This document shows positions 1 through 53,118 of a stretch of 64,000 bases of DNA, one piece after another. This DNA is from Schmidtea polychroa (Eukaryota). The notes below the pieces were generated by a model that ran no database searches, had not been told where the DNA came from, and worked only from the letters and a program-made list of their open reading frames with translations. The stretch is taken from assembly GCA_044892525.1 (NCBI GenBank), contig CM097885.1:310001-374000 (forward strand), given 5' to 3'. Position 1 is the first letter of the stretch. Every line of letters begins with the position of its first letter. Made by a program: the position numbers and the translations under genes.

Positions 1-1725
1 TCGCATCTAATAACTGGTAAAGGCATATTTCCTTATGATATTGCTACGTCAATGGATGTTTTACAGTCAATAACAGAATTACCATCGATTTGGGAGGGAG
101 TTAGTCAAGAAGATTATATACATGCAAATCAAATCTGGCGACAATATAACTGTGAGACACTGCTAGATTACATGCTAGTATATCTCAAGTTGGATGTTTT
201 TGTGTTGGCCGATGTTTTTGAAGCTTTCAGAGAAAAAACATTTGACGAAGATGGACTTGAGGCTTTATCGTTTGTTTCCATACCCGGATTAAGTTGGGCA
301 TCAGCTATTAAACAGTTACCTGAACCGGTAGAACTTATTCAAGATCCAGAGCTTTACCGTTTATTTGAAGCTGGTATTCGTGGTGGAATGACATTTATCA
401 ACAAACATCATGTTGAAGCTGATGAATCAACACAAATGTCATACCTAGATGTTAATAATTTATATGGATGGGCGCTGTCGCAAAAACTTCCTATTGGTGA
501 ATTTAGATGGATAAATGATCAGACTGAAATGAATGGTATTGTTGAAAGATGTGCAAATGGGGATGAGTTTGATGGAGATCGTGGATATGTTCTAGAGGTT
601 GACATCGTCATTCCTGATAGTATACAAGATAAGCTAGATGATTTACCTATAGCTCCTGAGCTTTGTTATCCACCTGGTAGTAGAGTTGAAAAGCTGTTGT
701 TAACTCATGAGCCTAAGAAAAACTATGTAGTTAATGGTAGAGTTTTGACAGAGTGGTTGAGTTACGGCGCAAAATTCACAAAAGTTAATCGTGCTGTAGA
801 ATTCAAGCAAGTAGCTATTTTCAAACGCTATATTGATTACAATACTCAAATGAGAGCAGCTAGTACAGATTCATTTCAGCGAGATTATTATAAGTTAAAG
901 AACAACAGTTTATATGGTAAAACCGTGGAAAACCTTAAGAAACGTATAAATTTGAGATTATGCAGCAAAAGCAAAAGATTGATAACTTATTGTAGTAATC
1001 CTATGTTTCGTCGTAGCATCAAGATTGCGGATGATCTCATTGCTGTTATACTTGATAAGGAAATGGTGTGTTTAGATAGACCAATGTATATTGGACAAAC
1101 CGTACTTGATTTATCTAAACTTCGCATGTACCAGTTTCAATATAAAGAACTACAGAGTTATAGAGAAGAATTCAATTGTCAAATTAATATCGTAGCCGGT
1201 GACACAGATTCCTTCTTTTTAGAGTGTAAAAATGTTGATTTACGCTTACAACTGTATCCAAAAATGATTGCCGATGGGCTCCTAGATACTTCAAATTATC
1301 CGGTGACTGATCCATTGTTCTCAGATAAAATTTGTTCGGTAATCGGGAAATTCAAGGATGAGAATAAAGGAAATCAATATAAAGAATGGGTGTTTCTTCG
1401 ACCCAAGTGCTACTCACTCCAAGGAGATAAAAACACTCTAAAAGCCAAAGGAATAAGTCTTACAAATTCTAATATCACCCATGAAGCCTATAAAAAAGTG
1501 TATACTGATGGTGGAACAGTGAGCATCGAACAAAAGAGAATAGGAAGTGTTAATCATCAGTTGTATACTTTCATTACTGAAAAACGAGCTCTCCAATGTT
1601 TGGATGAAAAAAGGTATTGGTTCAATTCTAATGAAAGCTATGCCTACGGTCACTATAAGATTCGTCAAATGCATATCGCAACTGCTCCGTCTACAAATGA
1701 ATGCAAATCGAAACAAGAACTTTAA
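1..1725 (+). CDS. polB: Polinton/Maverick protein-primed family B DNA polymerase, C-terminal part (5' end outside window)
   Basis: Motifs KGIFPY, GIRGG, YLDVNNLYG, KLKNNSLYGK, AGDTDS, GKFKDE, LRPKCYS, AYGHY; frame is open from the window edge. Clearly diverged from the other two pPolB families in the window. Confidence 0.93.
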   Translation, partial: SHLITGKGIFPYDIATSMDVLQSITELPSIWEGVSQEDYIHANQIWRQYNCETLLDYMLVYLKLDVFVLADVFEAFREKTFDEDGLEALSFVSIPGLSWASAIKQLPEPVELIQDPELYRLFEAGIRGGMTFINKHHVEADESTQMSYLDVNNLYGWALSQKLPIGEFRWINDQTEMNGIVERCANGDEFDGDRGYVLEVDIVIPDSIQDKLDDLPIAPELCYPPGSRVEKLLLTHEPKKNYVVNGRVLTEWLSYGAKFTKVNRAVEFKQVAIFKRYIDYNTQMRAASTDSFQRDYYKLKNNSLYGKTVENLKKRINLRLCSKSKRLITYCSNPMFRRSIKIADDLIAVILDKEMVCLDRPMYIGQTVLDLSKLRMYQFQYKELQSYREEFNCQINIVAGDTDSFFLECKNVDLRLQLYPKMIADGLLDTSNYPVTDPLFSDKICSVIGKFKDENKGNQYKEWVFLRPKCYSLQGDKNTLKAKGISLTNSNITHEAYKKVYTDGGTVSIEQKRIGSVNHQLYTFITEKRALQCLDEKRYWFNSNESYAYGHYKIRQMHIATAPSTNECKSKQEL

Positions 1726-4591: not shown

Positions 4592-4929
4592 AGTAGGTAG
4601 TTAGTGGCTTACGGGAACAATAGGGGGGGGGTAAAAAATGTTGCAAACTTTTGATTGCATAACTTTTTCCGTAGACATTTTTTGATTACATAATTGTTGC
4701 CGTAATGCCCAATGTTTTCTGGGATTTTAAATACAAAATTTTCTTTTTCAATAAACAAGCCAAGGATAAATATTATTTGGATGGGTCTCCTTGGTCCTGA
4801 GAATTTCAATAGAAAAAGGTAGTCTTCAATAAAAAAGCATGGATTTTTCACACTATAGTGAGGGGATCTTCTTGGTCATGAGAATTTCAATAGAAAAGAT
4901 GGTTTACATTAAAAAACGCATAGTAAATT

Positions 4930-5600
4930 TTTAAAATAAAGCAAATTATGGGTCTAAAATTTAAAAATAAAGTAAATGATGGGTCTAAAAATTTAAGTAA
5001 ATCAAGGTTCAGATTTATTTTTGAAATAAAGTAAATTATTGTCTAAATAAGTAAATTATGGGCTAAGATTTTTCAATTAAAGTAAATAATGGTTCTAAAA
5101 AATTAAATTACAGTAAATTATGGTCCAAATTTTTAAATTAAAGTAAATTTAGGTTCTTAAAAATTAAATTAAAGTAAATTATGGTCAAAATTTTTGAATT
5201 ACAGTCCAAAAATTTAAATTAAAGTAAATAATGGTCCTAAAAAATTAAATTAAAGTAAATAATGGTCCAAATATTTTAAATTACAGTAAATAATGGTTCT
5301 AAAAATTAAATTACAGTAAATAATGGTCAAAAATTTTGAATTACAGTAAATTATGGCTCAAATTTTTCAATTACAGTAAATTATGGTTCTAAAAATTAAA
5401 TTAAAGTAAATTATGGTCCAAATTTTAAAATTAAAGTAAATTTAGGTTCTAAAAATTAAATTAAAGTTAATTAAGGTCCAAATTTTAAAATTAAATAATC
5501 AATGGTAAAAAAAATTTAAATTAAAGTTAAATAAGTAAATTAAAGTAATAATTTTTAAATAAGTAAATTAAAGTAATGTAATAAGTAAATTAAAGTAAGA
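4930..5600. repeat. Subterminal degenerate ~30-bp tandem array (AAATTAAAGTAAATTATGGTCC-like) of family B
   Basis: Visible periodic units; the same array recurs at about 10880-11380, 15580-16030, 37130-37400, 52630-52820 and 58270-58520. Confidence 0.8.
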
Positions 5601-5918: not shown

Positions 5919-6105
5919 TAATATTAATAATATATCAACCAAATACTATACAACACATAAAAAATTAACTAAACAATTAAAAATAACTAGACACATAACA
6001 AAACATATAAACATTAACTAAACACATAAAAATGAACTAGACACATAACAAACATAAAAATTTACCAAATAACAAATGTAAAGATATAAAATTTATTCAA
6101 TAAAA

Positions 6106-9100
6106 TTAGTCCTCATCGGACAAAATAACGTCATCGATATCGATGTCATCTTCTCCAAAATCTTCATTTAATTCTTCCTCATCTTCTCCATCATTTTCTC
6201 CAACATTTTCTGAAACATTTTCTGCAACAATTTCTCCAACATTTTCTCCAATATTTAATTCACTTAATCTTACATGCCCATATGCAAGACTAGTATTTTT
6301 CCCCACCCAAACCCTTTTGCCATCTTTGTTAGTTAGTGCTATTTTTGTGTTTTTAATTGTAAAAATTTGATGATTTTTGCTTGTTATTTTAGTCTGAGGA
6401 ACCGAAAAAATCTGGTTAGTGTTATAACAATCCAGGTATGACTGATGTTTTATGTCACTACCTTTCAATGTTACACCTTTAGCCTTTTTTGTTTCCTCAT
6501 CACCCAACAAGCTATAACATTTAGGTCTAAGAAAAACCCACTCCTTATATTTAAGACCTTTATTCTCGTCTTTGAACTTTCCAATGACTGAATCAAGGTT
6601 CTTACTATATAAGGAATGACAACTATTGTAATTGGAAGTATCCAATAAATTATCTCGAATCATTGCAGGTAAAAGAACCTCAAGTTTACAGTTAATGACT
6701 TCGAGGAAAAAGGAATCCGTATCACCCGCAACGATATTAATTTTACAATTAAACTCATTGCGAAATGATTCCAGATCCTTATATTGCAATTCATACATTC
6801 TAAGTTTAGATAGATCAAGTACAGATTGACCAATGTAACTCGGTCTATCTAAACATATAGAATCTGAATTCAATAGTGCTGCGATTAAATTATCTGCTAT
6901 TTTAATAGATTTTTTAAAAGTCGGTTTTGACGAATATTTAACTAATTTACCGGCAGTTGTACAAAGACGAAGATTCATTCTTCTCTTTAAATTTTCAACT
7001 GTTTTGCCGTCTAAACTGTTATTTAGCAATTTATAATAATTTTTATCTAAGTTATTTATGCTTTTTGATCTTAATTCGGTATTTGTATCTATATATTTTT
7101 TAAAAATTGGTGATTGCTTAAATCTTACACCCCTATTTACACGTGTTACTTTAACAGCAAGTTCCAAATATAATTTTAATAATCTCCAATGAATAACATA
7201 ATTAGATTTTGGAAGATGAGTTAATAATAATTTTTCAACCTTAGACCCAGCAGGTTTCATTTTTTCAGCAGCAACAGGGAAATCATCCAACTTCTCATTA
7301 AGCTCAGAAGGAATTACAAGATCAACTTCAAGAGTGTATCCATAAGACAAAGATTCAAGATCTAAATTCCTACATTCATCCATTATTTTATCAAATCCAT
7401 CAAGAACCCAACAAAATTCGCCACAAGGTAATGATTGACTTAAAGCCCAGCCATAAAGATTATTAATATCTATATATAGTAACTCGGTGTTCTCGTCGGT
7501 TTTTACGTAATGCTTATTCACAAAAGTAAGACCGCCTCTTATTCCACCCTCATAAAAGCTAAACATTTCGTTTTCAGTTATGAGCTCAATTGGTTAATTT
7601 AAAGACATTAATGCAGAAGACCAAGACATACCTGGAATTCCGAAATAATTCAATGGTTCCAATCTATTGTGAGCAATGGATTTCAACCGAAACTGATGAA
7701 AGAAATCAGCCAAAAGAAAACAATCAAGTTTTAGGTAGATCATCATATAATCTAATAAAGTTACGCAATTAGTTTCTACCCAAATCTCCTGAGCTTTTTC
7801 ATACTCAAGCTCAGTGACACCCTCCCAGATTGGTGGTAATTCATAAGTAGTTTGGAGAATATCTAAAGAAGTGGCGAAATTATAAGGGAAGATTCCTTTT
7901 TCAGAAACTATAGTACCAGAAAAAGCAGAATTAGTAAAAGGCAAAGAATTCAAAGTTTTGACTGCTTTAGCCAAAGAATCATTGACAAATTGATACGAAT
8001 CAATGTATCTTAGGCTAATTTTACCTAAATGAGCAATCAAAGATATAAATTTTTCCGTAGTTCCTATTTATGTTACATGTGCTACAAGCTGCACCCAAGT
8101 ATTTCCCAGTAAAATGATCGTGATCTCTAACAGGATCGACGATACATTTCAAACAAAGGTAACAAACAGATGCACTAAGAAATTGATGTTGTTCAATTTT
8201 CGTTAATTTAATCATAGGTTTCCTACCCATTTTATAATAAAAAAGAAGAACCTTATTTAATGCTATATCCTCTATAGCACTTAAAAAACTCTCGACGCAA
8301 TCTAAACCTATGAACTGTTGATAAGATTTAGATCCATCAAAGTTATTTACTAGTAAAAGACCAGCAGATATTGGCATGTGTCGCTGAAAATGATCATTAT
8401 CAGAAGGTAAAATAGCCTCAAAATCGGCATAAACTACAAAAGGAGGAGTTACTGTTTTCGACCAGTCAGTAAACTGTAAGAATTTATTTTGAGGGAAAGT
8501 ATAAAGAGTTGTTCCTAATTGATTACGTTTGCATAATATTTCATGTTTTTCTAGTGCGTTTCTATTATTAAACCCATTCAAACACCGATGGCACCATAAT
8601 GAACGTATGCGTGTAGGACAAGTAGTGTTGATACCACAATTCAATAACCTATTTAAATTGCTTATAGCAACGTAATGGAAATTGTTTCCTTTATTTAATA
8701 GTAGTAAATTAATTACAGTTCCATTTAAAACTTTGGAACGATGTATAATGTCTAAATGTGGATGTTTTAAAACGTAATTATCTGTTAATTGTTTGCTATT
8801 GTCATAAGAAAAAACGTTAATTATTAAGCCGGGATTTTTGGCCTCAAAATTTCTAATGTCTTTTAATTTCATGGGTAAATCTAACGGATTATATATTAAG
8901 TCGGATAAATTATAACTGGATGTCCTATTTCTATATTGTCTAACAACCTCATCATATTTTAAAATAGCTAAAATGCTATATAAAAAACATGAATCATCGG
9001 TGTTTTTTATATTAATTAAACAATATTTATTTTTTAGATAAGTAGGTAGTTCAATGAAACTCCTACCACTTAATCTACTTAACCTACTTATCTTTGTTAT

Positions 9101-10376
9101 GGTGAAGTGAATTTCTGTTATTTTTTTTATGAGCCAGCTACTTCCTAACTCTGTGATATTACTTATTTTCTCGTTTAGTTCCCTAATGCCTTCGTCAAAA
9201 AATGAGGCAGTTAAAGGTTTTGCGTAATTGGAGATATTATTAACCTTTATTTCCCCGTCTTTTTCAAATTCGATTGTTATTCCGAATTGAATTTTGACGG
9301 AGCCTAATTCGTTAATAATATCTCGTAATTTTATAATTAATTGTTCAGGAAATATTATTTCCTTTATATTTAAGTCGCTAGTATTTAAACTTAATATTTG
9401 ATGGGTACCCCTTAGATCTTTTTGTATTATGGGAACATTACCCCCTATTTGTATTATATTTAATCCATCCCAAGAATCAAAGGAATTAAATAATCCGACC
9501 TGGGATTCAACAAAAGGCAATCCGACCTGGGATTCAACAAAAGACAATCCGTCCTGGGATTCAACAACCAATCCATCATTGGATTCAACAAAAGACAATC
9601 CAGCCTGGGATTCAACCTCTAATCCGACCTGGGATTCAAAAGAAGAAGTATCTAATTTAATTTTTTTATTTGTATTATTTTTTTCTATAGTTGAGGGTCT
9701 TTTAAAAACACTATCTTTTTTAAAATTAAACCTATCTAAATGATGTTTATGTTTATTATAAAAAACGCTATATGTTACAGGGTCACTAGTCTTACATACG
9801 GGACATATAAAATATGTTTTATTATAATATTTTTTCGTGTAATAATTCTCCATTATAGAATGGCAATTATTATTATGTTTTTTCGATGAACAATAATTTG
9901 GATAAAGTATACCTATAAAATAAAAATTTAATAAAAAAAATATATATATATAATTTAAATGAAATATTTTAATAAATGTTTACGCATAAATTTACAAATT
10001 TTATTTACTAAAAAAATAAAAATTTACTAAATTAAAAATATTAACATTTAATTAAATAAAAAATTATATTAAATTTCCTTTAAATTATATAAAAAAGTAA
10101 TCAATACTTACATTGTATATTTTCATTTCGATTTATTGACACATTGACATAATTTTTCTCTTTATTCGTATTATTTAAATTATTAATTAAATAAATCAAT
10201 AAATAAAAAATTATGTTTACTTTTTCTTTTCAAATTTCCTTTAATCTTCGATTTTAAATTGTCTTCATTAATATTATCTAAATTAATTATTAAATTAATT
10301 AATAAATAAATTAAAATTTACCAAATTCCTGAATTTTTCCTCGAACATTCATAACGTTTTCTATTAAAGAATTCAT
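6106..10376 (-). pseudogene. polB: Family B pPolB, spliced (predicted exons 10376-10322, 10277-10221, 10174-10112, 9912 onward), disrupted
   Basis: ORFs 8021-9853, 7594-8040 and 6106-7566 are consecutive pieces. There is an internal deletion/frameshift near 8050, a frameshift near 7590, and motif B reads NNSLDGK. Upstream mini-exons join in frame. Confidence 0.88.
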
Positions 10377-10879
10377 TTTTAAAGGTTAACTATTTGTTAA
10401 ATGTGACTAATAATTGATTATTGTTTATAGATTATTATTGTTTATAGATTATTATTGTTTATAGGAACAAATTCTAACCAATCAAAATCAAGGAAGGGTA
10501 GGGAAAAATATATTACGTTGCGGTATTTTAAAATTAAAATTTATTTTAAAAACACATTTTGACGCTAAAGTCGAGTTATGTAACAAAGACATAATAAACT
10601 TATTATTTACTACAAATATTTCACCTATCAAATACCTAACTAGAGATGATATATATTGATTGTTCATAAAAGCAAACTTAATCATAAATTTCTGTATATT
10701 ATTTTGTAAATTATTTCTGTAAATTAAATTTTGTATGTTATTTCTGTAAATTATCAAGTAAATTTAAAGTTCTTGATAAGGTTAACTGGTTTCTTAGCTT
10801 ATGTTTTTTTTTAAAAAGTTCATCAATGTGTTAATATTCCTAGAAAATTATTGAAAAAAAAATATTTAGTCAAATGCAC

Positions 10880-11720
10880 TACAAAGTCTAAAATTTTAAA
10901 TTAAAGTAAATTAAAGATAAATAAGCAAATTAAGGTCTAAAATTTTCAATTAAGCAATTTAAGGTCTAAAATTTTCAAATAAGTAAATTATGGTCTAAAA
11001 TTTTACATGAAATTAAGGTCTAAAATTTTCAATTAAGTTCTAAAATAAAGTCTAAAATTTCAATAAAGTAAATTATGGTATATATTTTTAAACTTAAGTA
11101 AATTAAAGATAAATAAGCAAATTAAGGTCTAAAATTTCAATTAAGTAAATTATGGTCTAAAATTTTCAATTAAAGTAAATTAAGGTCCAAATTTGAATTA
11201 AAGTAATTTAAGGTTCAAAATTTAAAATTAAAGTAAATTAAGGTTCTAAAAAATTATATTAAAGTAAATTAAGGTCCAAATTTTTAAATTAAGTAATCAA
11301 TGGTCAAATATTTTAAATAAGTAAATTAAAGTAATAATTTTTAAATAAGTAATGTAATAAGCAAATTAAAGTAAGATTTTAAATTTATTAACAAAAAGGT
11401 GTTTGAGAATTGAAATTTTTTAATGAAATTTTTATGGAATAATTTTTAAGATAATTTTTAATTAAAATTTTTATGAAATATTTTTCAATGAAAATTTTTA
11501 ATGAAAATTTTTATGAAATATTTTTCAATGAAAATTTTAAATGAAAACTTTTATGAAATATTTTTCAATGACAATTTTAGAAAAAATTTTTTGAAATAAT
11601 TTTAGATTGAAATTATGTAAATTAAGGGATACATTTTTAAATTAAAGTAATCAATGGTCTATATTTTAAACTTCTATATTCGGTAAACAAGGACTAAATT
11701 AAGTAAATAAAGGGTTAAAT
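10880..11720. repeat. Family B subterminal-type tandem array, internal copy
   Basis: Repeated aagtaaattaaggtctaaaatttt units, followed by the same ttttaatgaaattttt units as at 5640-5820. Confidence 0.7.
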
Positions 11721-12099: not shown

Positions 12100-15000
12100 G
12101 TTTTTTAATTTTAAATAAGTAAATGTTTATATTTTTAATTTAGTAAATATTTATTTTTTAGTAAATAAAATTTGTAAAATAATAATAATTTGCAAATTTT
12201 TGCGTAAACATTTATTAAAATCTTTCATTTAAATTATATATTTTTATTAAATTTTTATTTTATAGGTATACTTTATCCAAATTATTGTTCATCGAAAGAA
12301 CATGATAATATTTGCCATTCTATAATGGAGAATTATTACCTGAAAAAATATTATAATAAAACTTATTTTATATGTCCCGTATGTAAGACTAGTGACCCTG
12401 TAACATATAGCGTTTTTTATAATAAACATAAAAATCATTTAGATAGGTTTAATTTTAAAAAAGATAGTGTTTTTAAAAGACCCTCAACTATAGAAAAAAA
12501 TAATACAAATAAAAAAATTAAATTAGATACTTCTTCTTTTGAATCCCAGGTCGGATTGTCTTTTGTTGAATCCAATGATGGATTGGTTGTTGAATCCCAG
12601 GACGGATTGTCTTTTGTTGAATCCCAGGTCGGATTGCCTTTTGTTGAATCCAATGATGGATTGGTTGTTGAATCCCAGGTCGGATTGCCTTTTGTTGAAT
12701 CCCAGGTCGGATTGGTTGTTGAATCCAATGATAGATTATTCACTTCCTTTGATTCTTGGGATGGATTAAATATAATACAAATAGGTGGAAATGTACCGAC
12801 AGTACAAAGAGATTTAAGAGGTACCCATCAAATATTAAGCTTAAATACAGCGACTTAAATATAAAAGAAGTAATATTTCCTGAACAACTAATAATAAAAT
12901 AACGAGATATTATTAACGAATAAGGCTCCGTCAAAATTCAATTCGGAATAACAATCGAATTTGAAAAAGACGGGGAAATAAAGGTTAATAATATCTCAAA
13001 TTATGCAAAGCCTTTAACTGCATCATTTTTTGATGAAGGCATTAAAGAATTAAATGAGAAAATTACTAATATTACTGAGTTAGGAAGCAGTTGGAATATA
13101 AAAAATATTACTGAAATACATTTCACCATAACAAAAATAAGTAGGTTAAGTAGATTAAGTGGTAGGAGTTTCATTGAAACACCTACTTATCTAAAAAATA
13201 AATATCGTTTAATTAATATAAAAAACACTGATGATTCATGTTTTTTATATAGCATTTTAGCTATTTTAAAATAGGATGAAGTTGGTAGTTATGCTAGAGA
13301 TAGAACATCGAGTTATAATTTATCTGACTTAGTATACGACCCGTTAGAATTACCTCTGAAATTAAAAGACATTAGGAAATTTGAATCTAAAAATTCGGGT
13401 GTAATAATTAATGTTTTTTCATATGATAATAGCAAACAATTAACTGATAATTATGTATTAAAACATCCACATTTAGATATTATACATCGTTCTAAAGTTT
13501 TAAATGGAACTGTAATTAATTTACTACTTTTAAATAAAGGAAACAATTTCCATTACGTTGCTATAAGTAATTTAAATAGGTTACTGAATTGTGGTATCAA
13601 CACTAGTTGTCCTACACGCATACGTTCATTATGGTGCCATCGGTGTTTGAATGGGTTTAGGTATAAACACGGACTGGAAAAACATGAAATATTATGTAAA
13701 CGTAATCAATTAGGAACAACTCTTTACACTTTCCCTCAAAATAAATTATTGCAGTTTACTGACTGGTCGAAAACAGTAACTCCTCCTTTTATAGTTTATG
13801 TCGATTTTGAGGCTATTTTACCTTCTGATAATGTTCATTTCCAACGACACATGCCAATATCTGCTGGTCTTTTACTTGTAAATAACTTTGATGGATCTAA
13901 ATCTTATCAACAGTTCATAGGTTTAGATTGCGTCGAGAGTTTTTTAAGTGCTATAGAGGATATAGCATTAAATAAGGTTCTTCCTTTTTATTATAAAATG
14001 GGTAGCAAACCTATGATGAAATTAACAAAAATTGAACAACGTCAATTTGTTAGTGCATCTGTTTGTTACCTTTGTTTGAAATGTATCGTCGATCCTGTTA
14101 GAGATCACGATCATTTTACTGGGAAATACTTGGGTGCAGCTTGTAGCACATGTAACATAAATAGGAAAATAAATAAAATTTTGCCTATCGTATTTCACAA
14201 CTTGAAGAGATACGATATGCACCATATTCTTAAATACGGATTAAATAAATTTAAAAATTGGACTTTAGGTTGCATCCCAATAACGACTGAAAAATTTATT
14301 TCTTTGATTGCGCATTTAGGCAAAAGAATTGATTCTTATCAATTCATTGATTCTTATCAATTTGTTAATGATTCTTTAGCTAAAGCAGTCAAAACTTTGA
14401 ATTCTTTGCTTTTTACTAATTCTGTTTTTTCTGGCACTATAGTTTCTGAAAAAGGAATCTTCCCTTATAATTTCGCTACATCTTTAGATATTCTCCAAAC
14501 TACTTATGAATTACCACCAATCTGGGAGGGTGTTACTGAGCTTTAGTATGAAAAAGCTCAGGAGATTTGGGTAGAAACTAATTGCGTAACTTTATTAGAT
14601 TATATGATGATCTACTTAAAACTTGATTGTTTTCTTTTGGCTGATTTCTTTCATCAGTTTCGGTTGAAATCTATTGCTCACAATAGATTAGAACCATTGA
14701 ATTATTTCGGAATTCCAGTATGTCTTGGTCTTCTGCATTAATGTCTTTAAATGAACCATTTGAGCTCATAACTGAAAACGAAATGTTTAGATTTTATGAG
14801 GGTGGAATAAGAGGCGGTATTACTTTTGTGAATTAGCATTACGTAAAAACCGATGAGAACACCGAGTTACTTTATATAGATATTAATAATCTTTATGGTT
14901 GGGCTTTAAGTCAATCATTACCTTGTGGTGAATTTAGTTGGGTTCTTGATGGATTTGATTTAATAATGGATGAAAGTAGGAATTTAAATCTTGATTCGTT

Positions 15001-16245
15001 GTCTTATGGATACACTCTTGAAGTTGATCTTGTAATTTCTTCTGAGCTAAATGAGAAGTTGGATGATTTCCCTGAAGCTGCTGAAAAAATGGGCATGTAA
15101 GATTAAGTGAATTAAATATTGGAGAAAATGTTGGAGAAATTGTTGGAGATGAATTTGATGAAAATGTTGGAGAAGATGAGGAAGAACTTATTGAAGATGT
15201 TGGAGAAGATTTTGGAGAAGATGATATCGATATCGATGACGCTATTTTGTCTGATGAGGACTAATTTTATTAAATAAAAGTTTATATATATACATTTGTT
15301 ATTTGTTTGGTAAATTTTAATGTTTTTTATGTGTCTAGTTAATGTTTATATGTTTTTTTATGTGTTTAGTTAATTTTTTATGTGTTGTATAGTATTTGGT
15401 TGATATATTATTATTATTATTTTTATTATTATTATTATTTTTATTATTATTTCATAAACATTTCCATTAAAAATTACCATTGAAAAATATTTCATTAAAA
15501 TTTCTATTAAAAATTATTCATAAAAAATTATTTCATAAAAACTTTCATTAAAAAATTTCAATTGTTAATAAATTTAAAAATCTTACTTTAATTTACTTAT
15601 TTAACTTTATTTTTTACCATTGATTACTTAATTTTAAAATTTGGACCTTAATTAACTTTAATTTAATTTTTTAGAACCTTAATTTAGTTATTTGTGCCCA
15701 TTCATTACTTTAATTTAAAATTTTGGACCTTGATTTACTTTATTTTAATTTTTTAGAACCAATATTTACATTAATTTAAAAATTTGAACCCTAATTTACT
15801 TAGTTGAGCCCTTAATTAACTTTAATTTTAAATTTTGAACCATTATTTACTTTAATTTAAAAATTTGAACCTCAATTTAGATTTTTGAGCCCATTGATAA
15901 CTTTAATTCAAAAATCTTAGCCCATAATTTACTTTAATTCAAAAAAAATCTGAACCTTGATTTACTTAAATTTAATTTTTTAGACCCATCATTTACTTTA
16001 TTTTTAAATTTTAGACCCATAATTTGCTTTATTTTAAAAATATACTATGCGTTTTTAATGTAAACCACCTTTTCTATTGAAATTCTGAGGACCAAGGAGA
16101 CCCCCTCACTATAGTCTGAAAAATACATTGGAGCGTATGGCAACAATTATGTAATCAAACAAGGTCTACGGAAAAAATTATGCAATCAAAAGTTTGCAAC
16201 ATTTTTACCCCCCCCATTGCTCCCGCGGGCCCCTAACTACCTACT
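12100..16245 (+). mobile_element. Polinton family B arm ending in terminus ...CTAACTACCTACT
   Basis: pPolB pseudogene, subterminal array, then the reverse complement of the family B terminus ending at 16245. Inner boundary approximate. Confidence 0.85.
12266..15264 (+). pseudogene. polB: Family B pPolB pseudogene with large internal deletion
   Basis: Starts at acceptor tttatag|GT ATA CTT TAT; has multiple stops and frameshifts, and the polymerase core is deleted at the junction GAAAAAATG|GGCATGTAAG near 15090. Confidence 0.9.
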
Positions 16246-30900: not shown

Positions 30901-33204
30901 TTAGTTATCAATTAATGTGTTTAAAATGTGGTCCATATAGATATTGTAGCTCGCTGTGATCGCTGTTATAATGCATTTCCTAGCTAATATGTTAATTTCC
31001 CTATCAGTCAATCCTATATCTCTTAAGGGTTTATCATTGTTGATATCCCAGGTTCCTAAAGTTCCTACAACAAGTGCATATAGTGTAGTTTTATTTGCGG
31101 TGCCAGTTTCAATAGCCAAATTTCTATATTTCTCAAAATTGTTATCTCTAGCGTTATTAAAATTTTCTATTGTGTCATATGGTACCTTAATGTCAAGTAG
31201 GTGTATTTTTTTGTTTCTATTTGAGGTTATAATTAAGTCAGGTCTTAGTGTAGTTATTGTTCCTGGTGGTGCTCTTTCTGTGTCGACTTTAAAGTTTTTG
31301 GAAGTTAGATATTTATGCGTTATTTCTAATACTCTATTGTGCTTATTTCTCCTAGCATTTTGTGTTTTGGTGCAGTGGTTGAAAATATGTGCCTGCGTTT
31401 CCCAGTCTTTGCTGCATAATCTGCAGAGTATGTTTTGGTTCTCTTTGTGCCTATTTATTGTATAATTAAGACTGAGCATGTTATTGCTTGCTTTAATTAT
31501 GAAGTAATATTGATTGTCGGTAAGAACAGTTGATTTTATTGGGTATGCAGATAAGTTATTGTTTCCTATTGTTTTTGATATGTGTCCCTGGTTGATCATG
31601 TCATACCATTTTTCAGCATACCATCTACTTGTTATATTATGTAATGTTGAGGATGTGTCTTCTATGTTATTCTTATCTATATAATTAATCTCGTTGTTGT
31701 ATTTTATTTCTAGGTTAAAAAAGCCTTTAATAAGTATTATTTTGCATTGAATATTGAATTTTTCGCGGATTCTCTTACATGATTCCCTACAAGATTTACC
31801 ACTTATGTCCCCCTTACAGTCTGCATTAAGCCAGTCGAGGGCATTATTAATGTTGATTTCCTTATTAAATGACCTGATTTTGACTATCTCTATAAGTTCA
31901 CTTAATAGAAAATTTTTCATCTTAATGTCGTCAGAGTTAAATATTCTAATAAATTGAGTGATACTTTGGATTAGGTATTCATCAATGGATGGTGTGATAC
32001 CTAATCCTCCTAAAGAGCAGTTCGCATAAATAAAGTTATTATTAAGATTTTGGTGTATGTCCTTTAGTTCATTTTTAATTATTCGTTTAATTTTTTGGTC
32101 ATAGCCTAGTTGTTTTTCTCTATTTTGTACTATTTTATTCCTATTGCAGTCTAGTATCATATGATTGATTGTGCATGTTCGCAAAGGAAAACTAAATCGG
32201 GAGTGTATAAAAGTTTTATATGCATGTGGTTTCTGTGTTGGATGTAGGTCAGAGGTAAAGATCATATTTGCGTCTTCTAGTGCCTTAGATAAAATGTCGT
32301 CAATGCTGTGTTTTCTTTTTTCACCAAAACATACGCCTAGGTATCTATAAATTTTATCGCTATCTATAATCGGGATCTTTTCATCGTATATTGTTATTGG
32401 GATATCAGAATGATTTTTTTGTAGTTGGAAATATCCGCATTGGTTTGGTCTGAATTTTAGCTTAGATCTATCGGTTAATTTGATTATATGTTCTAGTATC
32501 ATCTTAATGTTATCCCTGGAGTCTGATATTAGAACAATATCATCAGCATACGCCAATATGCTGACATTATATTCACTAATTATTAAAGGGAATTTATTTA
32601 ATATATCCTTAAGTATGAAATCTATTGCCAGACAAAAAAGTGTCATGGACATTGGGCATCCTTGCTTAACTCCGTTATGTATTTCTATTTCGCTAGTGAG
32701 CTGCCCTTCACAGTCATATAGTGTTTTACAGTTGTTATATAGGTCTTTAAATACGTTTAATGTGTTGTTGTTAATACCTAGATCTATCAATGTTTGCCAA
32801 ATTAGTTTATGTGGGATGCTTCCAAAGGCGTCCGCTAAGTCAAGCCATATGATGTTAATATCTTTATTATTGCGAATTGCTCTTTCTTTTACTAGTGTGA
32901 GGGTTATATTATGTTCAGAACAACCGTCAGGTATACCTATTGCTTTTTGGTTGATACTGATGAGGCCCCTTAATTTTACCCATTCAAGAAGTCTATTGTT
33001 TATTATAGCTGAAAAGATTCTATAGGATGTATCTAAGATAGCAAGAGGTCTCCATGAAGATATATCATAGCTTAATTTCTCTTTATATGGTTTAATTATT
33101 AGTTTGGTTTTAAAAAATTTCCAATTATCTGGAGTTTTTATGTTACGGATTAAGTTATTGAAAAGGGCGCATAAGAATGTGAGGTCAGGGTCATTTATTC
33201 GCAA
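30901..33204 (-). CDS. Reverse transcriptase, CCHC knuckle and restriction-like endonuclease (C-terminal part of ORF2)
   Basis: WRPLAIL, WLDLADAFGSIPH, GVKQGCPMS, LAYADD, YRYLG, GGLGI, CRLC...ETQAHIFNHC, RNKHN, LRPDL, LDIKVPYD. Confidence 0.95.
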   Translation of the reverse strand: MRINDPDLTFLCALFNNLIRNIKTPDNWKFFKTKLIIKPYKEKLSYDISSWRPLAILDTSYRIFSAIINNRLLEWVKLRGLISINQKAIGIPDGCSEHNITLTLVKERAIRNNKDINIIWLDLADAFGSIPHKLIWQTLIDLGINNNTLNVFKDLYNNCKTLYDCEGQLTSEIEIHNGVKQGCPMSMTLFCLAIDFILKDILNKFPLIISEYNVSILAYADDIVLISDSRDNIKMILEHIIKLTDRSKLKFRPNQCGYFQLQKNHSDIPITIYDEKIPIIDSDKIYRYLGVCFGEKRKHSIDDILSKALEDANMIFTSDLHPTQKPHAYKTFIHSRFSFPLRTCTINHMILDCNRNKIVQNREKQLGYDQKIKRIIKNELKDIHQNLNNNFIYANCSLGGLGITPSIDEYLIQSITQFIRIFNSDDIKMKNFLLSELIEIVKIRSFNKEININNALDWLNADCKGDISGKSCRESCKRIREKFNIQCKIILIKGFFNLEIKYNNEINYIDKNNIEDTSSTLHNITSRWYAEKWYDMINQGHISKTIGNNNLSAYPIKSTVLTDNQYYFIIKASNNMLSLNYTINRHKENQNILCRLCSKDWETQAHIFNHCTKTQNARRNKHNRVLEITHKYLTSKNFKVDTERAPPGTITTLRPDLIITSNRNKKIHLLDIKVPYDTIENFNNARDNNFEKYRNLAIETGTANKTTLYALVVGTLGTWDINNDKPLRDIGLTDREINILARKCIITAITASYNIYMDHILNTLIDN

Positions 33205-36918: not shown

Positions 36919-37405
36919 AGTAGGTAGTTAGGGGCCCGCGGAAGCAATGGAGGGGGGGTAAAAATGTTGCAAACTTTTGATTGCATAATTTTTTCCGTAG
37001 ACCTTTTTTGATTACATAATTGTTGCCATACGCTCCAATGTATTTTTCAGACTATAGTGAGGGGGTCTCCTTGGTCCTCAGAATTTCAATAGAAAAGGTG
37101 GTTTACATTAAAAACGCATAGTATATTTTTAAAATAAAGCAAATTATGGGTCTAAAATTTAAAAATAAAGTAAATGATGGGTCTAAAAAATTAAATTTAA
37201 GTAAATCAAGGTTCAGATTTTTTTTGAATTAAAGTAAATTATGGGCTAAGATTTTTGAATTAAAGTTATCAATGGGCTCAAAAATCTAAATTAAGGTTCA
37301 AATTTTTAAATTAAAGTAAAAAATGGTTCAAAATTTAAAATTAAAGTTAATTAAGGGCTCAACTAAGTAAATTAGGGTTCAAATTTTTAAATTAATGTAA
37401 ATATT

Positions 37406-38007
37406 AGTAGGGTATTGTGTGGACCCGGGAACAAAGGCATATGACGTCATCGATGACGTCACAAAGACATATTACGTCATACCCCCACCCCCGGGGGTTT
37501 TTTTTTTAAATTTTTTTAAAAAAAATTTTTTTTTTAAATTTTTTTTTAAAATTTTTTTTTAAATTTATATTACGTTGCGGTATTTTAAAAATTTATATTA
37601 CGTTGCGGTATTTTAAAATATATATTACGTTGCGGTATTTTAAAATTTATATTACGTTGCGGTATTTTAAAATTTATTATATTTTAATTATTAAATATAT
37701 TACGTTGCGGTATTTTAAAAACTTATTGATAAAAGTTTAATAAAATAAAATTATTATTACACACACACAATATAGTCTACCCGACAAAATAGTCTGTTCC
37801 CCTATGGTCATACACACACACAATGTATAAAAATATTATTAGTGTCCACACACGCAACAAGTTAGTGTTCTCATTGATATATTATTAATCTATATACTCC
37901 GAGTCTATCCGACAAAATATTCTGTCCCCCTATGGGTACTGCTCACAAGGGTACTGGTCACGCTCAACAACTCGCAAGGGTATTAATAAACAATGTAATA
38001 AAACATA

Positions 38008-38341: not shown

Positions 38342-41300
38342 TCATCGAAAATAATCATGTCCAAAATAATTATCATCTGCTGGATCATGGAAATCATCTG
38401 TATCATGGAAATCATCTGTATCATCTGCTGAGATAGCTTCCGTTGAATCTATAAATATATCGGTGTCACCGCCCCTATAATGGCCATATGCCAAACTTTG
38501 ATTTTTATCCACCCAATTTCGTTTATCATCTCTACACGTCAAGGCTCTTTTATTATTTTTAATACTAAAAAGTTGGTGATTTTTTGACGTTATTCTAAAC
38601 TGAGGGACTGTGTATATTTTATCATTTAAATAACAATCTAGATACGACTGATGTGTTAGTCCAGTATCTTTCATACTTATCCCCTTAGCCTTCATACTTT
38701 CCTCATCACCCATCAAACTGTAACATTTAGGTCTCAAGAACACCCAATCTTTATATAATTACCCTTTATTCTCGTCTTTGAATTTGCCAATGACAGAATC
38801 AAGGTTCCTACTATATAAAGGATGATTTGGGTCATAATTCGAAGTATCTAATAATTGATCTCTAATCATCGCAGGTAAAAGATGTCAAGACTACAATGTT
38901 TAATTTCCAAGAAGAAGGAATCTGTGTCTCCAGCAACGATATTAATTTCGCAGTTGAATTCGTCGCGATATTTTTGCAACTTTTCATACTGCAGCTGGTA
39001 CATCCTGAGTTTGGATAAATCAAGTACGGTTTGACCAATGTAACTAGGTCTATTCAAACACACTATGTCCTTCCTCAATAAAACCGAAATCAAGTCATCA
39101 TCGATTTTCGTGGATTTACGAAAAGTCGGTTTCGAACAGAATGTTAATAATCTCTGTGAAGAATTACACAGACGTAAATTAATACGTTTTTTAAGATTTT
39201 CAACAGTCTTGCCGTAAAGACTGTTGTTTAATAATTTATAAAAATTTTTATCGAGTTTATTTGTCGACGCTGCTCGTAACGCCGTATTTGTGTTAATATA
39301 ATTTTTGAAAATTTTATCTTGTTTAAATTTAATAGCTCTATGTGTTTTTGATATTTTAACACCTAATTTAATAAATATTTGTAGAAGCCTCCAATGAAGA
39401 ACGTAGTTCCTCTTGGGGCTATGTGTAAGCAACAGCTTCTCTATTTTCGAACCCGGTACACACTTCTTTTCAGCGGCAACGGGAAGATCGTCCAGTTTGT
39501 CGTGAATTGACGTCGGTATTTCTAAATCCACTTCTATGGTATAACCATAATCAAGCAGATCTAAATCTACCGTTGTGCATTCAACAATTATATTATTTAA
39601 TAAATTATCATCAGTAACCCATTCAAAGTCACTGCAAGGTAATGGTTGACTTAAAGCCCAACCGTATAAATTATTTATATCTATGTAAAGCAAAGCGGTA
39701 TCCGGGTCTGTTTTTACATAATGTTTATTTACAAAAGTTAGTCCGCCACGGATACCGCCCTCGAAAAGTTTATACATCTCCATATCGGTGAGGAGCTCAA
39801 TTGGAAAGTTTAAAGTTAATAAGGCTGAATTCCAAGACATACCTGGAATCCCTAAGAAATTTAATGGCTCTAGTCGGTTATGAGCAATGAACTTAGCTCT
39901 AAATTGCTGGAAAAAATCGGCTAAAAGGAAAACATCAAGTTTTAAATAAACCATCATGTAATCGAAAAGTGAAGTACATGAAGTTTCAACCCAAATTCGC
40001 TGAGCTGTCTCATATTCAGCAGGAGTCACATCTTTCCAAATAGGTGGTAACTGATGAGTGTTATGTAAAACCTCTAATGAAGTTGCGACATCATAAGGAA
40101 AAATTCCCTTTGCAGTTATTATTGTACCCTGAAATTCTGATTCGGTCAAGGGTAAAGATGATAAAGTTTTGACAGCATTATTTAAAGACTCGCTGAGAAA
40201 TTGATAAGAGTCTATAAATTTAACAGTTAATGAGTCAATCTTAGCAAAAAGACTAAGGAATTTCTCGCTGGTTAAAGGAATACAACTAATATTCCATGAA
40301 TGATATTTTGAAAGGCCAAATTTCAAGATATGATGCAGATCATAACCCTTTAAATTATGAAATACTACAGGAAGGGTATGTCTAATTTGCCTCGACAGAT
40401 TACAAGTTGTACAAGCGGCACCAAGATATAGACCGGTAAAATGATCATGGTTCCTAACTGGACTAACTAAAGGCTTATTGCACAAATAACATGATGTGCT
40501 GTTTTCAAACATTAATTGTTGCTCATCTGTAATTATCATTTTCTTTTGATAATTTTTATAATAATAAGGAGTTACAATATATTTCCCTATCATTTCAATT
40601 TCAGTAAGAAATTGATCGACACAATCTAAACCGGTGAACGACTTATAAATTTTTACGCCTGTGAAATTATTAATAAAAAGCATACCGGCAGAAATAGGCA
40701 GATGACGTTGAAAGTAGCGAGTGTCTTTAGGTAAGATAGCCTCAAAGTCAGCGTAAATAACAAAGGGAGGAGTAACTGTTTTACTCCAATCAGTAAATTC
40801 TAAATATTTATTTTTAGGCAATGTGTACAAGGTAGTACCAAGCTGATTTTTATCGCAAAGACCCTTATGTCTATTAAAAGTGTCATCATTCCTAAAACCG
40901 TTTAAACATCTAGGGCACCACTGACTACAAATCCTAACAGGAGTGATTGAACTATTCCTACAATTAAGAAATCTATTTAGGTCTGTGATTCCAAGATAAT
41001 GATAATTATCATTCTTTTCGATTAATAATAAATTGATAGGTATGGCTCCTACTATCTTACTCCTATATATTATATCAATAAAGGGATGTTTCATAACTGC
41101 ATCTTCATCGGAAATGTCAATCAAAGCCTTTTCGTTATAAGTAAGAACATTAATACTATAACCCGGATTTTGTTGTTCAAATTTACTTATATTTGATAGT
41201 TTCATCGGCATATCATTAGGATCAAATTTAATTTCAGAAAGATTGTAGGAATTAGGGCGATTTCTATATTGCCTATTTATACAGTCATATTTAATAATTG

Positions 41301-42116
41301 ACAAGAAACTATACAAAAAGCAGAAGTGGTCATTATTAACTACATTAATGAGACAGCTTAAGTTTCTTAAAGATTTTGGGGTTTCAATAAAACTTCTACC
41401 ACTTAATCGACTTATTTCAGCAAATTTAGTAAGAACAAAGCTTATGTATTCTATTTTATTGATAGTCCAATTACTACCTTTCTCATTAATTTTAATTATT
41501 TTTTCATTTAAACGAGCAATACCTTCGTCAATGAATGTATCGCTCCAAACTCGGGCGGAATTCGAGATTACAAAAGATTGTAACTCATCATCTTTTATAA
41601 ATTCCACCTTTAGACAAAATTGAATTTTACATGATTTTAATTTATTTACATATAAATTTAATTTATTTATTAAAATTTCTGGTACAGAGACCGTTTTTAA
41701 ATCTAAAGACGAAACGTCCATTTTTAATATAATATGATTATTATTTAAATCACTGGTGACATCTACGACACCATAACCTATTTGATTAGTATTATTATTA
41801 ATACGATTATTATAATAAATATTACTACTACTACTATTATTATTATTATTATTATTATCAATTTCCTCATCACTTATGTTGATTATTTCATCATCATCAC
41901 TTATTGTGATTACATCAATAACTTTAGATTTTTTACTTGGTATTGAATTTATTTTTTCATTATTTTTTCTTTTATTCATATTAATTAGATTATTTATTTG
42001 TTCATTTAATTTATTTACTTGGTCTTTTAGAATATTTATTTCGTTTATATCATTATTATTATTATTGGTGCTGTTAGTATTATTGTTGGTGATATTATTA
42101 TTATTATTATTGTTGA

Positions 42117-42153
<37 letters not shown>

Positions 42154-42158
42154 GTTGA

Positions 42159-42195
<37 letters not shown>

Positions 42196-42239
42196 GTTGT
42201 TGATATTATTATTATTATTGTTGTTGATATTATTGTTGA

Positions 42240-42285
<46 letters not shown>

Positions 42286-43446
42286 GTTAACAAACGATTC
42301 ATATAAGCTATAGAAAAGAGACTTCTTAGAAGGTTTAAATTGTTGGAGATGGAGTCTATGCTTACTATAAAATTCCTTATACGTTATAACTTCAATAACC
42401 TCACATTTAGGGCATAGGATGTAGGTGACACCGTTATATTTATGACTATAATATCTTTCCATTATATCATTGCAGTCATTATGATATTGACTATTACAAA
42501 AGTTTTGGTATTTCAAACCTATGAAAATATTTTTATCATAAAATGTTTAAAAAATAATAAGATAATAATCATTTTTAAAGTTTAAGATATTTTTCGTAAG
42601 ATATTATTCAAAATTATCTTTTAAATAGTATCTTATAAAAAATATTATTCAAAATTATCTTTTAAATAGTATCTTATAAAAAATATTATAAAATATATAT
42701 ATATAATTTAATTCGTTTTCATAAATAATTTAATTCATTTTCATAAATAAATAAATAAGTAAATCTTCTTTTCATGAATAAATCTTCTTTTCAAAATCAT
42801 CATAAATAAATAAGTAAATCTTCTTTTCATAAATCATCATAAATAAATAAATAAATAATTCTTTTTCTAAAATAGTTTTTATTTTCATAAATAATATATA
42901 AAAGTTATTAATTATAATGTTCAAAATCATCATAAATAAATAGGTAAATCTTCTTTTCATAAATTATCATAAATAAATAAGTAAATCTTCTTTTCATAAA
43001 TTATCATAAATAAATAAGTAAATCTTCTTTTTCTAAAATAGTTTTTATTTTCATAAATAATATATAAAAGTTATTAATTATAATGTTCAAAATCATCATA
43101 AATAAATAGGTAAATCTTCTTTTCATGAATTATCATAAATAAATAAATAAGTAAATCTTCTTTTCATAAATTATCATAAATAAATAAGTAAATCTTCTTT
43201 TCATAAATTATCATAAATAAATAAATAAGTAAATCTTCTTTTCATAAATTATCATAAATAAATAAATAAGTAAATCTTCTTTTCATAAATTATCATAAAT
43301 AAATAAGTAAATCTTCTTTTGATGAATAAATCTTCTTTTCATAAATCTTCCTTTCAAAATCATCATAAATAAATCTTCTTTTGAAATATCTTCTTTTCAT
43401 GAAAAAATCTTCTTTTCATAAGTTTCTTCTTTTAATTATTATTATA

Positions 43447-43479
<33 letters not shown>

Positions 43480-43806
43480 ATATTTTAAAAAACTTAAAAA
43501 TTTATAACAATAAATAAATACTTACATTTTCGTCCTTTCGAAAGAAATTTTCCAGCATCAGCAGCAGCAGAAGTATTTATTACATTTCCATCTAAAAGCA
43601 TAATAAAAATAATAATGATAATAAGAGTAAACTATTACCATTTATTCTATTCATGTCTACAGCTTGTCCGTCGATATTCATTTTAATTTGTTGATTAGTA
43701 CCTAATAATCATATTAAAAATAATAAAATAATAAAATAATAAATTTACCATTAATTCCTCCAACGATCTTTCCGTCAACTCTTTGAATATTGTTGTTGTT
43801 GTTCAT
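38342..43806 (-). pseudogene. polB: Family A pPolB (group 2 type with endonuclease VII/HNH insert), spliced: exons 43806-43749, 43701-43639, 43591-43526, 42518-38342; one frameshift and one nonsense codon near the 3' end
   Basis: Domains: Cys/His fingers, poly-Asn, OTU-like INxxNxDxxCF...HY, C2H2 finger, ExoI YADFE, CYLC...HDH...CTTCN, YIDINNLYG, NNSLYGK, AGDTDS. Lesions: 1-nt deletion near 38882 and TAA at 38759-38761, compared with the other copies. Confidence 0.93.
42720..43420. repeat. ~32-36-bp tandem repeat (AATAAATAAGTAAATCTTCTTTTCATAAATTATCAT) inside predicted pPolB intron 3
   Basis: More than ten visible units. Confidence 0.85.
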
Positions 43807-44171: not shown

Positions 44172-44583
44172 TTAACCATCAAATTTTTTATACAACAACC
44201 ATGCCAAACAGTGTTGACCACATGTTTGAGTCAATGGATTTTGAAACATAGTTTTATTATATACAATAGGTTTCCCAATTGTTTGAAGTTTTGATATCAA
44301 CAAAGCAGGATAATAGAAACCCATAGGATCGAATACGAATATATTACTAGGTTTCACATATATAGCTATCCAATGTTCTCCACCAAGATGAGACGAATGA
44401 GTATTGATAATTATGGCTTGATTATTGCTCAAATAAGGAATTTTATCAAGAGGAAAAACTCCTACAAATTCATTTTCTAATATTTGTTTTCCAATTCGAT
44501 TAACCTGAACAGAACTACTTTAATAAAATTAAACAGTATCAAAAAACTTACTCCATGACAACTTTTTGTGTTTCTGTATACAT
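44172..44583 (-). CDS. Adenain-like cysteine maturation protease, spliced (intron 44551-44515); start at 44583 or 44556
   Basis: FVGVFPLD, IINT...GEHWIA (His), FDPMG (Asp), Q...TCGQHC (Cys). A GTAAGT donor and TAG acceptor link ATG GA|T TCT in frame. Confidence 0.9.
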
Positions 44584-47171: not shown

Positions 47172-48292
<1,121 letters not shown>

Positions 48293-48353
48293 TACAACAA
48301 GAAGATTTAATATTAAATTTAATGTCTGGTAATGAAGGATTAGCACCCATTGT

Positions 48354-48861: not shown

Positions 48862-49500
48862 TCAAATTTGTTTTAAACTTTGTTTATATACCATGGCGCC
48901 TTTTGGGTTGAAAATATCTGTTTTTACCCGTATATCATCAGGACATTGTTGTGTGAAATCGAGAAATATATACCCATGAGGTATTTTCGTAGCATCTTGA
49001 AATGCACTGATAAGAAAATTACGGTTATTAGGGTATGCTTGTCGTCCAAGAAAATCGATGACAGTTGCATCTCTAGGATTCTTGAAAATAACTAGATATT
49101 GTACATTTAAATTACGTGTTCGATGTGCACCACCTTGATGAAATAGATTTTGTGTTATGAAAATAACTGTTACACCAACATGTCTGCAGATTTTTGTGAA
49201 TAAATTATTAAAATCCTTTTCTTTATTGGCTTCTTGATACAAATCATCGATAATGATGACATCATCTTTTTTCAAACGACTTGACCAGTTTTTATCAAAA
49301 CCCTTTACTATTTTCATGTTTTTCAATTGACAGAAACTTGATTGAGTCAATCCATGTTCTTCATCGGCGCCCCTATGCCAATAAATATTGTTGAATTTTG
49401 TTTTGAACAAATTAGATTTTAGTAATTTACAAACAAATAATGTTTTTCCACTACCACTCGGACCAACGATTTGGTATACTGCATCATTTCGTAATTCCAT
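48862..49500 (-). CDS. A32/FtsK-like DNA packaging ATPase
   Basis: Walker A GPSGSGKT, Walker B IIIDD, RH.....IFITQNLF, FKNPRD. Confidence 0.95.
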   Translation of the reverse strand: MELRNDAVYQIVGPSGSGKTLFVCKLLKSNLFKTKFNNIYWHRGADEEHGLTQSSFCQLKNMKIVKGFDKNWSSRLKKDDVIIIDDLYQEANKEKDFNNLFTKICRHVGVTVIFITQNLFHQGGAHRTRNLNVQYLVIFKNPRDATVIDFLGRQAYPNNRNFLISAFQDATKIPHGYIFLDFTQQCPDDIRVKTDIFNPKGAMVYKQSLKQI

Positions 49501-49604: not shown

Positions 49605-50069
49605 ATGCTTTCAAATATAAATTACAGGGCAAAAGCTGATGTATCAAAAATGGTATTTCCAATGGGGAAACCACAACAACTTATCAATAGAAGTAAAAAA
49701 TATCCAATAATATATTTCAAAACTGGTAAATGTAGAATTATGGGGTGTAAGGAAATAATCAAAGCTAGTGAATATAATGTTTATGATTTAGAAATACAAT
49801 CGATAACCGTAACTTCCGATATAGGTTTTTCTTGTAATTTAAATAATTTGGCTAAATTAATACCATGCTTTTACGAACCAGAATTATTTCCAGCTTTGAG
49901 ATATATAAAATATAACCCTATGTGTGTAAATATATTCGCTAGCGGTAAGATAGTAATTCTTGGAATAAAAAATATTGATTACAAATGTATAGTTGATAAT
50001 ATCATATCTGAAATTAAATCAATAATTGAAGGAAAAGAATTTTTAGATTTTTTATTATCACTTAATTAA
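49605..50069 (+). CDS. TBP: TATA-binding protein homologue carried by the Polinton
   Basis: Second repeat IQSITVTSDIGFSCNL...YEPELFPALRY...VNIFASGKIVILG matches the TBP signature; the first repeat is shortened but keeps LSNI and YFKTGKCRIMGCK. Intact, intronless, inside the TIRs. Confidence 0.9.
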   Translation: MLSNINYRAKADVSKMVFPMGKPQQLINRSKKYPIIYFKTGKCRIMGCKEIIKASEYNVYDLEIQSITVTSDIGFSCNLNNLAKLIPCFYEPELFPALRYIKYNPMCVNIFASGKIVILGIKNIDYKCIVDNIISEIKSIIEGKEFLDFLLSLN

Positions 50070-51838: not shown

Positions 51839-52624
<786 letters not shown>

Positions 52625-53118
52625 AATATTGGTTCTAAAAAATTAAAATAAAGTAAATCAAGGTCCAAAATTTTAAATTAAAGTAATGAATGGGCACAAA
52701 TAACTAAATTAAGGTTCTAAAAAATTAAATTAAAGTTAATTAAGGTCCAAATTTTAAAATTAAGTAATCAATGGTAAAAAATAAAGTTAAATAAGTAAAT
52801 TAAAGTAAGATTTTTAAATTTATTAACAATTGAAATGAAATATTTTATGAAATAATTTTTTATGAATAATTTTTAATAGAAATTTTAATGAAATATTTTT
52901 CAATGGTAATTTTTAATGAAAATGTTTATGAACTAATAATAAAAATAATAATAATAATATATCAACCAAATACTATACAACACATAAAAAATTAACTAAA
53001 CACATAAAAATAACTAGACACATAAAAAAACATATAAACATTAACTAGACACATAAAAAACATTAAAATTTACCAAACAAATAACAAATGTATATATATA
53101 AACTTTTATTTAATAAAA

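Follow-up and report, generated by a model that had tools for sequence, protein, structure and literature searches.

In all adenoviruses studied, the pTP and Ad-pol mRNAs do not differ in their first three 5' exons, and the start codon of the adenoviral IVa2 gene is divided by an intron, according to the available part of one report (PMC11304566). Among Polinton-like elements, the Alpha-class PolB of Polintons and adintoviruses is described, in the accessible portion of the source, as an OTU + PF03175 protein (PMC8502044). The core genes of Mavericks are described as intronless in excerpts of two further sources, one dealing with vertebrates (PMC8097293) and the other with nematodes (bioRxiv 10.1101/2022.07.12.499685). 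Our literature search did not turn up any account of a Polinton polymerase with a mini-exon leader.

Here, we analyzed a window of 64,000 nucleotides from the Schmidtea polychroa genome (contig CM097885.1), with the polymerase genes and their elements designated families A to D. Judged from its sequence, the family B polymerase gene probably begins upstream, in three very short exons separated by introns of host type, and we infer that these exons are spliced onto the main polymerase exon. The layout given in the original prediction (three mini-exons with their coordinates and splice motifs) agreed exactly with our reading of the minus strand (Table 1). All three leader introns are of phase 1, and the GT at 9912-9911 finishes the split codon in frame with a 610-codon ORF (8021-9853). 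The first in-frame ATG of the main exon is located at 9853. The exons had been called stop-free, and a scripted join of the window-copy leader to the main exon was translated without any stop. The GC content of the mini-exons was 0.27, 0.18 and 0.21 and their purine content 0.60-0.72, whereas the introns had GC contents of 0.05, 0.07 and 0.08 and purine contents of 0.43-0.45, which fits real exons and introns. The final bases of exons 1 and 2 are G and A, respectively.

Table 1. Positions in the window of the putative family B polymerase leader, its promoter motifs and associated features
Feature	Position	Strand	Remarks
Inverted CCAAT box (ATTGG), in a promoter block common to family C	10478-10482	-	Family C block at L043, about 7540-7615
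Three TATAAA boxes, 17-nt direct repeat	10424-10463	-	Last box 10429-10424, 53 nt upstream of ATG
ATG, leader start	10376	-	Minus-strand reading
Mini-exon 1, 55 nt, phase 1 at end	10322-10376	-	Length identical in 30/30 copies
Intron 1, 44 nt, GTAAAT..TTTAG	10278-10321	-	56 nt in 24/30 copies
Mini-exon 2, 57 nt, both ends phase 1	10221-10277	-	GC 0.18, purine 0.72
Intron 2, 46 nt, GTAAAC..TTTAA in window copy	10175-10220	-	..TTTAG in 29/29 others
Mini-exon 3, 63 nt, final base T	10112-10174	-	T + main-exon GT = first zinc-knuckle Cys
Intron 3, 199 nt, GTAAGT..TATAG	9913-10111	-	196-204 nt across copies
First part of main polymerase exon, with the zinc-knuckle module, ESQVGL-type coding repeats and a conserved N-terminal domain	8021-9912	-	
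Rest of window-copy polymerase, two more frames (7594-8040 and 6106-7566)	6106-8040	-	
Head-to-head partner copy of family B polymerase	12241-15549	+	Inverted repeats I2, I7, I9, I11, I17
Family A leader	Exons 43806-43749, 43701-43639, 43591-43526; main exon from 42518	-	

To place this gene in its context, the elements carrying the family A and family B polymerases should be distinguished. The family A polymerase (38866-42518) matched PF03175 with an E-value of 1.2e-27 (97.3 bits; cut-off 25.8). Its neighbors include an adenain-type protease (Peptidase_C5 at 44175-44504; 28.1 bits, cut-off 21.3), an A32-type ATPase (Pox_A32 at 48862-49500; 33.7 bits, cut-off 22.8) and an rve integrase (47750-48346; E 2e-7), whose 31.6 bits fall just below the cut-off of 32.6, and a chromodomain match lies in the ORF adjoining rve (47193-47684). 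On the basis of these matches, family A (window positions 38.8-50 kb) sits in a recognizable Polinton. An ORF with a TATA-binding-protein domain (49605-50069, plus strand; PF00352, E 8e-15) adjoins the ATPase and integrase of this element on the opposite strand. In addition, the protease gene may itself be spliced, as a TTCAG acceptor precedes 44175-44504 and a GTAAGT is located about 48 nt upstream (44505-44583, minus strand); an in-frame joint with that GTAAGT donor was not found.

Family B had also been called a Polinton family. This designation is justified for its polymerase, which is 61% identical to that of family A over 974 residues, but not for the other Polinton genes, as judged from one complete unit. 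The window fragment 7594-8040 matched PF03175 (DNA_pol_B_2) with an E-value of 3.3e-5, its 23.4 bits being under the cut-off of 25.8, and an intact family B copy gave no PF03175 match at E≤0.1. The complete unit (C3:49902000-49935999) is a palindrome of 15.7 kb, whose two arms, each of 7351 bp, share 99.6% identity and enclose a spacer of 1060 bp. Besides two polymerases it contains no ORF of at least 120 aa, and integrase, capsid, ATPase and protease genes were thus absent among ORFs of that size, a search that intron-split genes could escape. A Pfam search with the ORFs flanking family B copies gave nothing, and at the palindrome ends, where the arms run out within a different repeat, neither a clean terminus nor a target duplication was seen. 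Family B, as represented by this one complete unit, is a polymerase-only palindrome and not a complete Polinton. The pair found in the window (6092-10500 and 12241-15549) is a decayed version of this palindrome, the partner copy having kept the 3' part of intron 3 with its acceptor and lost the mini-exons.

Several other features of these elements were observed. The two arms of the family B palindrome resemble each other more closely (99.6%) than do copies from different loci (96-98%). Polymerase genes of family B, and also those of family C (L043 and window positions 1-1725), are typically arranged head-to-head, and those of families A and D are apparently single. A weak Endonuclease_7 (HNH-like) match was located inside the polymerase, upstream of PF03175 (E 5e-4 and 3e-3), at 13647-14546 of the window (plus strand) and at residues 579-614 of L035, and was present in the precomputed matches of the outside homologue P0001 as well. 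Tandem arrays of ∼30-31-nt repeats (AAATTAAAGTAAATTATGGTC-like) occur beside polymerase genes of several families (4912-5530, 11040-11360, 37110-37410 and 52610-52800), and such arrays account for a large share of the spacer located upstream of the family B leader. Two reverse-transcriptase ORFs were also found (30901-33204, minus strand, and 61815-63998, plus strand), one of them with a Ulp1-type protease domain (PF02902). Overall, the window is crowded with mobile elements, and no host gene was recognized in it.

A leader of the same kind can be read in two other families. In family A, an ATG at 43806 opens exons of 58, 63 and 66 nt, which are followed by introns of 47, 47 and 1007 nt. In family D, which was found with an outside homologue as query and whose structure was worked out on locus L044, there are four mini-exons (49, 63, 63 and 87 nt), followed by introns of 47, 44, 53 and 1107 nt. 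All of these introns are of phase 1. The statement that exon number, size class and phase are alike in families A and B was therefore borne out (58/63/66 nt and 55/57/63 nt, respectively). In families A and D, exon GC content was 0.29-0.39 compared with 0.06-0.17 for introns, and every leader exon but the last ends in G. The last mini-exon of families A, B and D ends in T right before the GT donor, and the main exon opens with GT. The family A leader was found in at least 40 copies with 99-100% identity, suggesting recent activity of an element that needs this gene, and the family D leader in at least 40 copies with 98% identity.

The family A and family B leader peptides had likewise been noted to be dissimilar, and this was supported by a z score of 0.59, with 133 out of 500 shuffles scoring equally high. 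The other two pairs among families A, B and D had z scores of 0.75 and 0.06 (111 and 225 of 500 shuffles as high), and the only features common to the three peptides were the MN start and the final Cys. A blastn search of the window with the leaders at low stringency returned AT-rich noise only. Thus, nothing in the leader other than its open frame and splice sites looks constrained. On the other hand, the idea that the two families had arrived at this layout independently was not supported. The last intron has the same position and phase in families A, B and D (T|GT, in the same Cys codon), and each of the three begins its leader with MN and has a TATA box 49-53 nt upstream of the ATG. A common ancestor would be the simpler reading of these shared features, and the mini-exon layout is likelier to be a lineage trait of the three families, inherited rather than invented independently.

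The layout is not universal, as family C and the outside homologues lack the leader. Family C, found at locus L043 just upstream of the window, contains a promoter block near-identical to that of family B but not the three mini-exons. Its start codon is apparently split by a 47 nt intron (A|TG), and several more short introns of GT-AG type, apparently four or five at the least, follow in its N-terminal part (L043 7600-9130; window 1-1725). One additional locus (L045) was uninformative, having other repeats upstream.

The position of the last joint is best understood from the N-terminus of the protein. An alignment of N-terminal sequences revealed a motif, C-x6-7-C-x4-H-x3-5-C, which is conserved not only in families A, C and D but also in two outside homologues, P0029 and P0007. 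The main exon of families A, B and D starts exactly one residue past the first Cys of this motif, whereas in family C, P0029 and P0007 this Cys is contiguous with the rest, and P0029 and P0007 begin with M-x-C directly at the zinc knuckle. Since the T|GT joint yields the first Cys, splicing would rebuild a conserved residue. The 19 codons from the acceptor to the ATG at 9853 encode the remaining conserved Cys/His positions of the zinc knuckle, an argument for a translation start upstream of 9853. In each of the three intact copies, the frame is open across about 19-24 codons upstream of the acceptor, with no ATG among them. The part upstream of the ATG at 9853, which encodes the first half of the motif, thus lacks a start codon, and an upstream exon would be needed. 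Protein-database searches with the family B N-terminus found no leader-bearing protein (one search matched P0001 and P0002 only), and a search with the family A N-terminus likewise found no protein with a leader. In an exhaustive search with 3028 hits, P0029 and P0093 were the only proteins among the best 150 whose best-matching stretch reaches the zinc knuckle, and neither of them has a leader.

If an upstream exon is needed, it should be asked which one serves the acceptor at 9913. Promoter motifs, which were read by eye, bear on this question. In family A, ATTGG at 43882-43878 is followed by TATATAG 52 nt upstream of the ATG, and in family D, TATATAAG is located 49 nt upstream of its ATG; the corresponding motifs of family B are listed in Table 1. 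No ATG occurs between the last TATA box and the leader ATG in families A, B and D. We consider it unlikely that the acceptor is real but joined to a different partner, such as another first exon in cis, an earlier exon reached by skipping, or a host spliced leader supplied by trans-splicing, a process that occurs in some animal phyla. Alternative GTAA/YAG chains with the same exons 2 and 3 do exist, with ATGs 694-787 nt upstream of the acceptor, and all exons are of phase 1, so that any skip would leave the frame intact. One such first exon could be an ATG-started open frame of 56 codons (10516-10685, minus strand) that ends at a GTAATA donor. However, this frame is located upstream of the CCAAT and TATA boxes and is closed in family C. 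Moreover, among the mini-exons only the last ends in the T needed for the conserved Cys, which speaks against such partners, and a spliced leader ending in ..AUG would presumably be out of frame with GT ATA. The three mini-exons listed in Table 1 are thus preferred as the partners of this acceptor.

In AT-rich DNA, apparent exons may also arise by chance, and the chance level of such a chain was therefore measured. Chains were required to start with ATG, to be stop-free and to keep phase, with GTAA donors, YAG acceptors, exons of at least 30 nt and a fixed end acceptor. An intact copy contained 30 GTAA/YAG chains within the 800 nt upstream of its acceptor, and 11 of these had three exons. A three-exon chain was found in 3 out of 300 dinucleotide shuffles of this region, and a leader of at least 170 nt in 2 out of 300; when any GT..AG pair was permitted, 238 of the 300 shuffles contained a chain. 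As a natural control, a comparable chain was found at 90 of 1500 other YAG sites in the window (6%), and at 4 of 136 in the AT-rich subset (GC<0.22). Taken alone, the family B pattern is modestly beyond chance and should be considered suggestive rather than compelling, and the main weight for the leader would lie in the comparative evidence from the other families.

The natural control leaves some room for the explanation that the chain is fortuitous, and that the mRNA starts nearer the gene and is translated from the ATG at 9853. The Met at this position is conserved across families, the homologue P0004 begins there, and the leader peptides are not conserved, all of which would agree with such a start. 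We nevertheless regard it as improbable. The 19 codons before this ATG hold zinc-knuckle Cys/His residues in families A, B and D that align with family C, P0029 and P0007; the equal phase and the T|GT end recur in three families with unrelated leader sequences; and the TATA box is located upstream of mini-exon 1 and not of 9853. The spliced leader therefore continues to be the preferred reading.

The integrity of the leader was further analyzed across family B copies. The 801 nt around it are present in at least 40 places of the 781 Mb assembly with 96-98% identity, and the window copy was aligned with 29 other genomic copies. The TAA at the acceptor of intron 2 had been attributed to decay. 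Position 10175 is A in the window copy only and G in all 29 others, which therefore have AG at 10176-10175; the TAA is thus a private decay, and intron 2 of the family ends in TTTAG. GT and AG ends are intact at all three introns in 29 out of 30 copies, the window copy with AA at acceptor 2 being the exception, and the joined reading frame is restored and open in all 30. Exon lengths are exactly 55, 57 and 63 nt in every copy, and length variation is confined to introns: intron 1 has 44 or 56 nt and intron 3 has 196-204 nt, the latter with differences that are not multiples of three. Among the non-window copies, exon substitutions comprised two synonymous and two non-synonymous changes, which at 96-98% likeness give no signal of constraint. 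Selection on the leader architecture, for which the original prediction had argued, may be presumed, family B copies (96-98% alike) being too similar to tell.

The window copy is a decayed member of the family, with acceptor 2 mutated and the polymerase frameshifted into three broken frames (8021-9853, 7594-8040 and 6106-7566). Six further polymerase copies were available from fetched loci of 10 kb, half of which keep intact frames of 1305-1359 codons and half of which are frameshifted like the window copy. It is very improbable that the leader is a mere relic of a silent family, persisting only through the youth of its copies: the 96-98% identity implies little elapsed time, frameshifts affect the window copy and three of the six others, and family B units are without other Polinton genes, but the intact polymerase frames in the remaining three copies argue otherwise, and a relic leader would still have worked in the source element, so that this explanation touches present activity and not the gene model. 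Near the family B N-terminus, 27-nt coding tandem repeats (ESQVGL-type nonapeptides) were also observed in the window (9400-9650 and 12530-12740) and at loci L033, L035 and L036, and the variable number of these nonapeptides among copies leads to the different total frames of 1305-1359 codons.

Host introns were examined for comparison. Introns of actin genes (three loci with two distinct introns, a small sample) were 54 and 51 nt long, and both had the form GTAAAT...(T/A)ATAG. The short introns of the elements appear to be of the same kind as these two. No run recorded as RNA contained a 2.4 kb stretch of a typical family B copy.

On the basis of these results, the following expression route could be proposed. 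The protein-primed polymerase gene of family B, with its host-type spliceosomal introns, would be transcribed by RNA polymerase II from a start ∼25-30 nt downstream of the TATA box, which itself follows the inverted CCAAT box. In the predicted mRNA, the first AUG (10376) would open a frame running across the exons of 55, 57 and 63 nt, and removal of the three phase-1 GT-AG introns would join the last T of the leader to the GT at 9912-9911, giving the first Cys of the N-terminal zinc knuckle of the polymerase. The leader would thereby provide the start codon and a fast-evolving N-terminal extension of 58 residues, of which nothing but the open frame and splice sites would be retained. Speculatively, such 5'-proximal introns may also aid expression or export of the mRNA.

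If the start codon of the polymerase indeed depends on host splicing, these elements would be deeply adapted to expression in the host nucleus, and annotation based on ORFs would misplace the polymerase start. They would also be a natural case in which to ask if 5' introns are maintained for expression rather than for coding. More generally, gene models of endogenous virus-like elements in AT-rich genomes would need splice-aware prediction. A further and rather doubtful suggestion is that, in the lineage of families A, B and D, the 5' end was turned into a modular leader, entirely of phase 1, in which the introns themselves are selected and the sequence is free, and that this arrangement parallels the three-exon leader of adenovirus polymerase mRNAs and may go back to common roots with it. 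Introns selected in this way would license expression in the nucleus or nuclear export, or would protect the gene against the silencing of intronless foreign genes.

Compared with known systems, the elements analyzed here resemble Polintons/Mavericks and the Alpha PolB of adintoviruses in the PF03175 match of family A and in its protease, ATPase and integrase neighbors. They differ from the Mavericks described in vertebrates and nematodes in that the polymerase has three to four leader introns, and apparently more in family C. A different kind of resemblance is found in the E2B Ad-pol of adenoviruses, which is likewise a protein-primed family B polymerase from a related virus lineage; its mRNA, as far as the available part of the source describes it, is also made by splicing short 5' exons onto one large terminal coding exon. 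Within the same part of that source, the split start codon of IVa2 parallels the apparent A|TG of family C. In the described portion, however, the adenovirus leader is largely non-coding, whereas in the elements studied here the first mini-exon would hold the ATG and every leader exon would be coding, and the introns here are tiny and host-like (44-56 nt). No sign of a leader in common with a second gene was noticed here. In adenoviruses, a leader exon supplies the first codons. Thus, the adenovirus polymerase mRNA may be regarded as the nearest functional analogue of the mini-exon leader, with a resemblance that would be one of function only.
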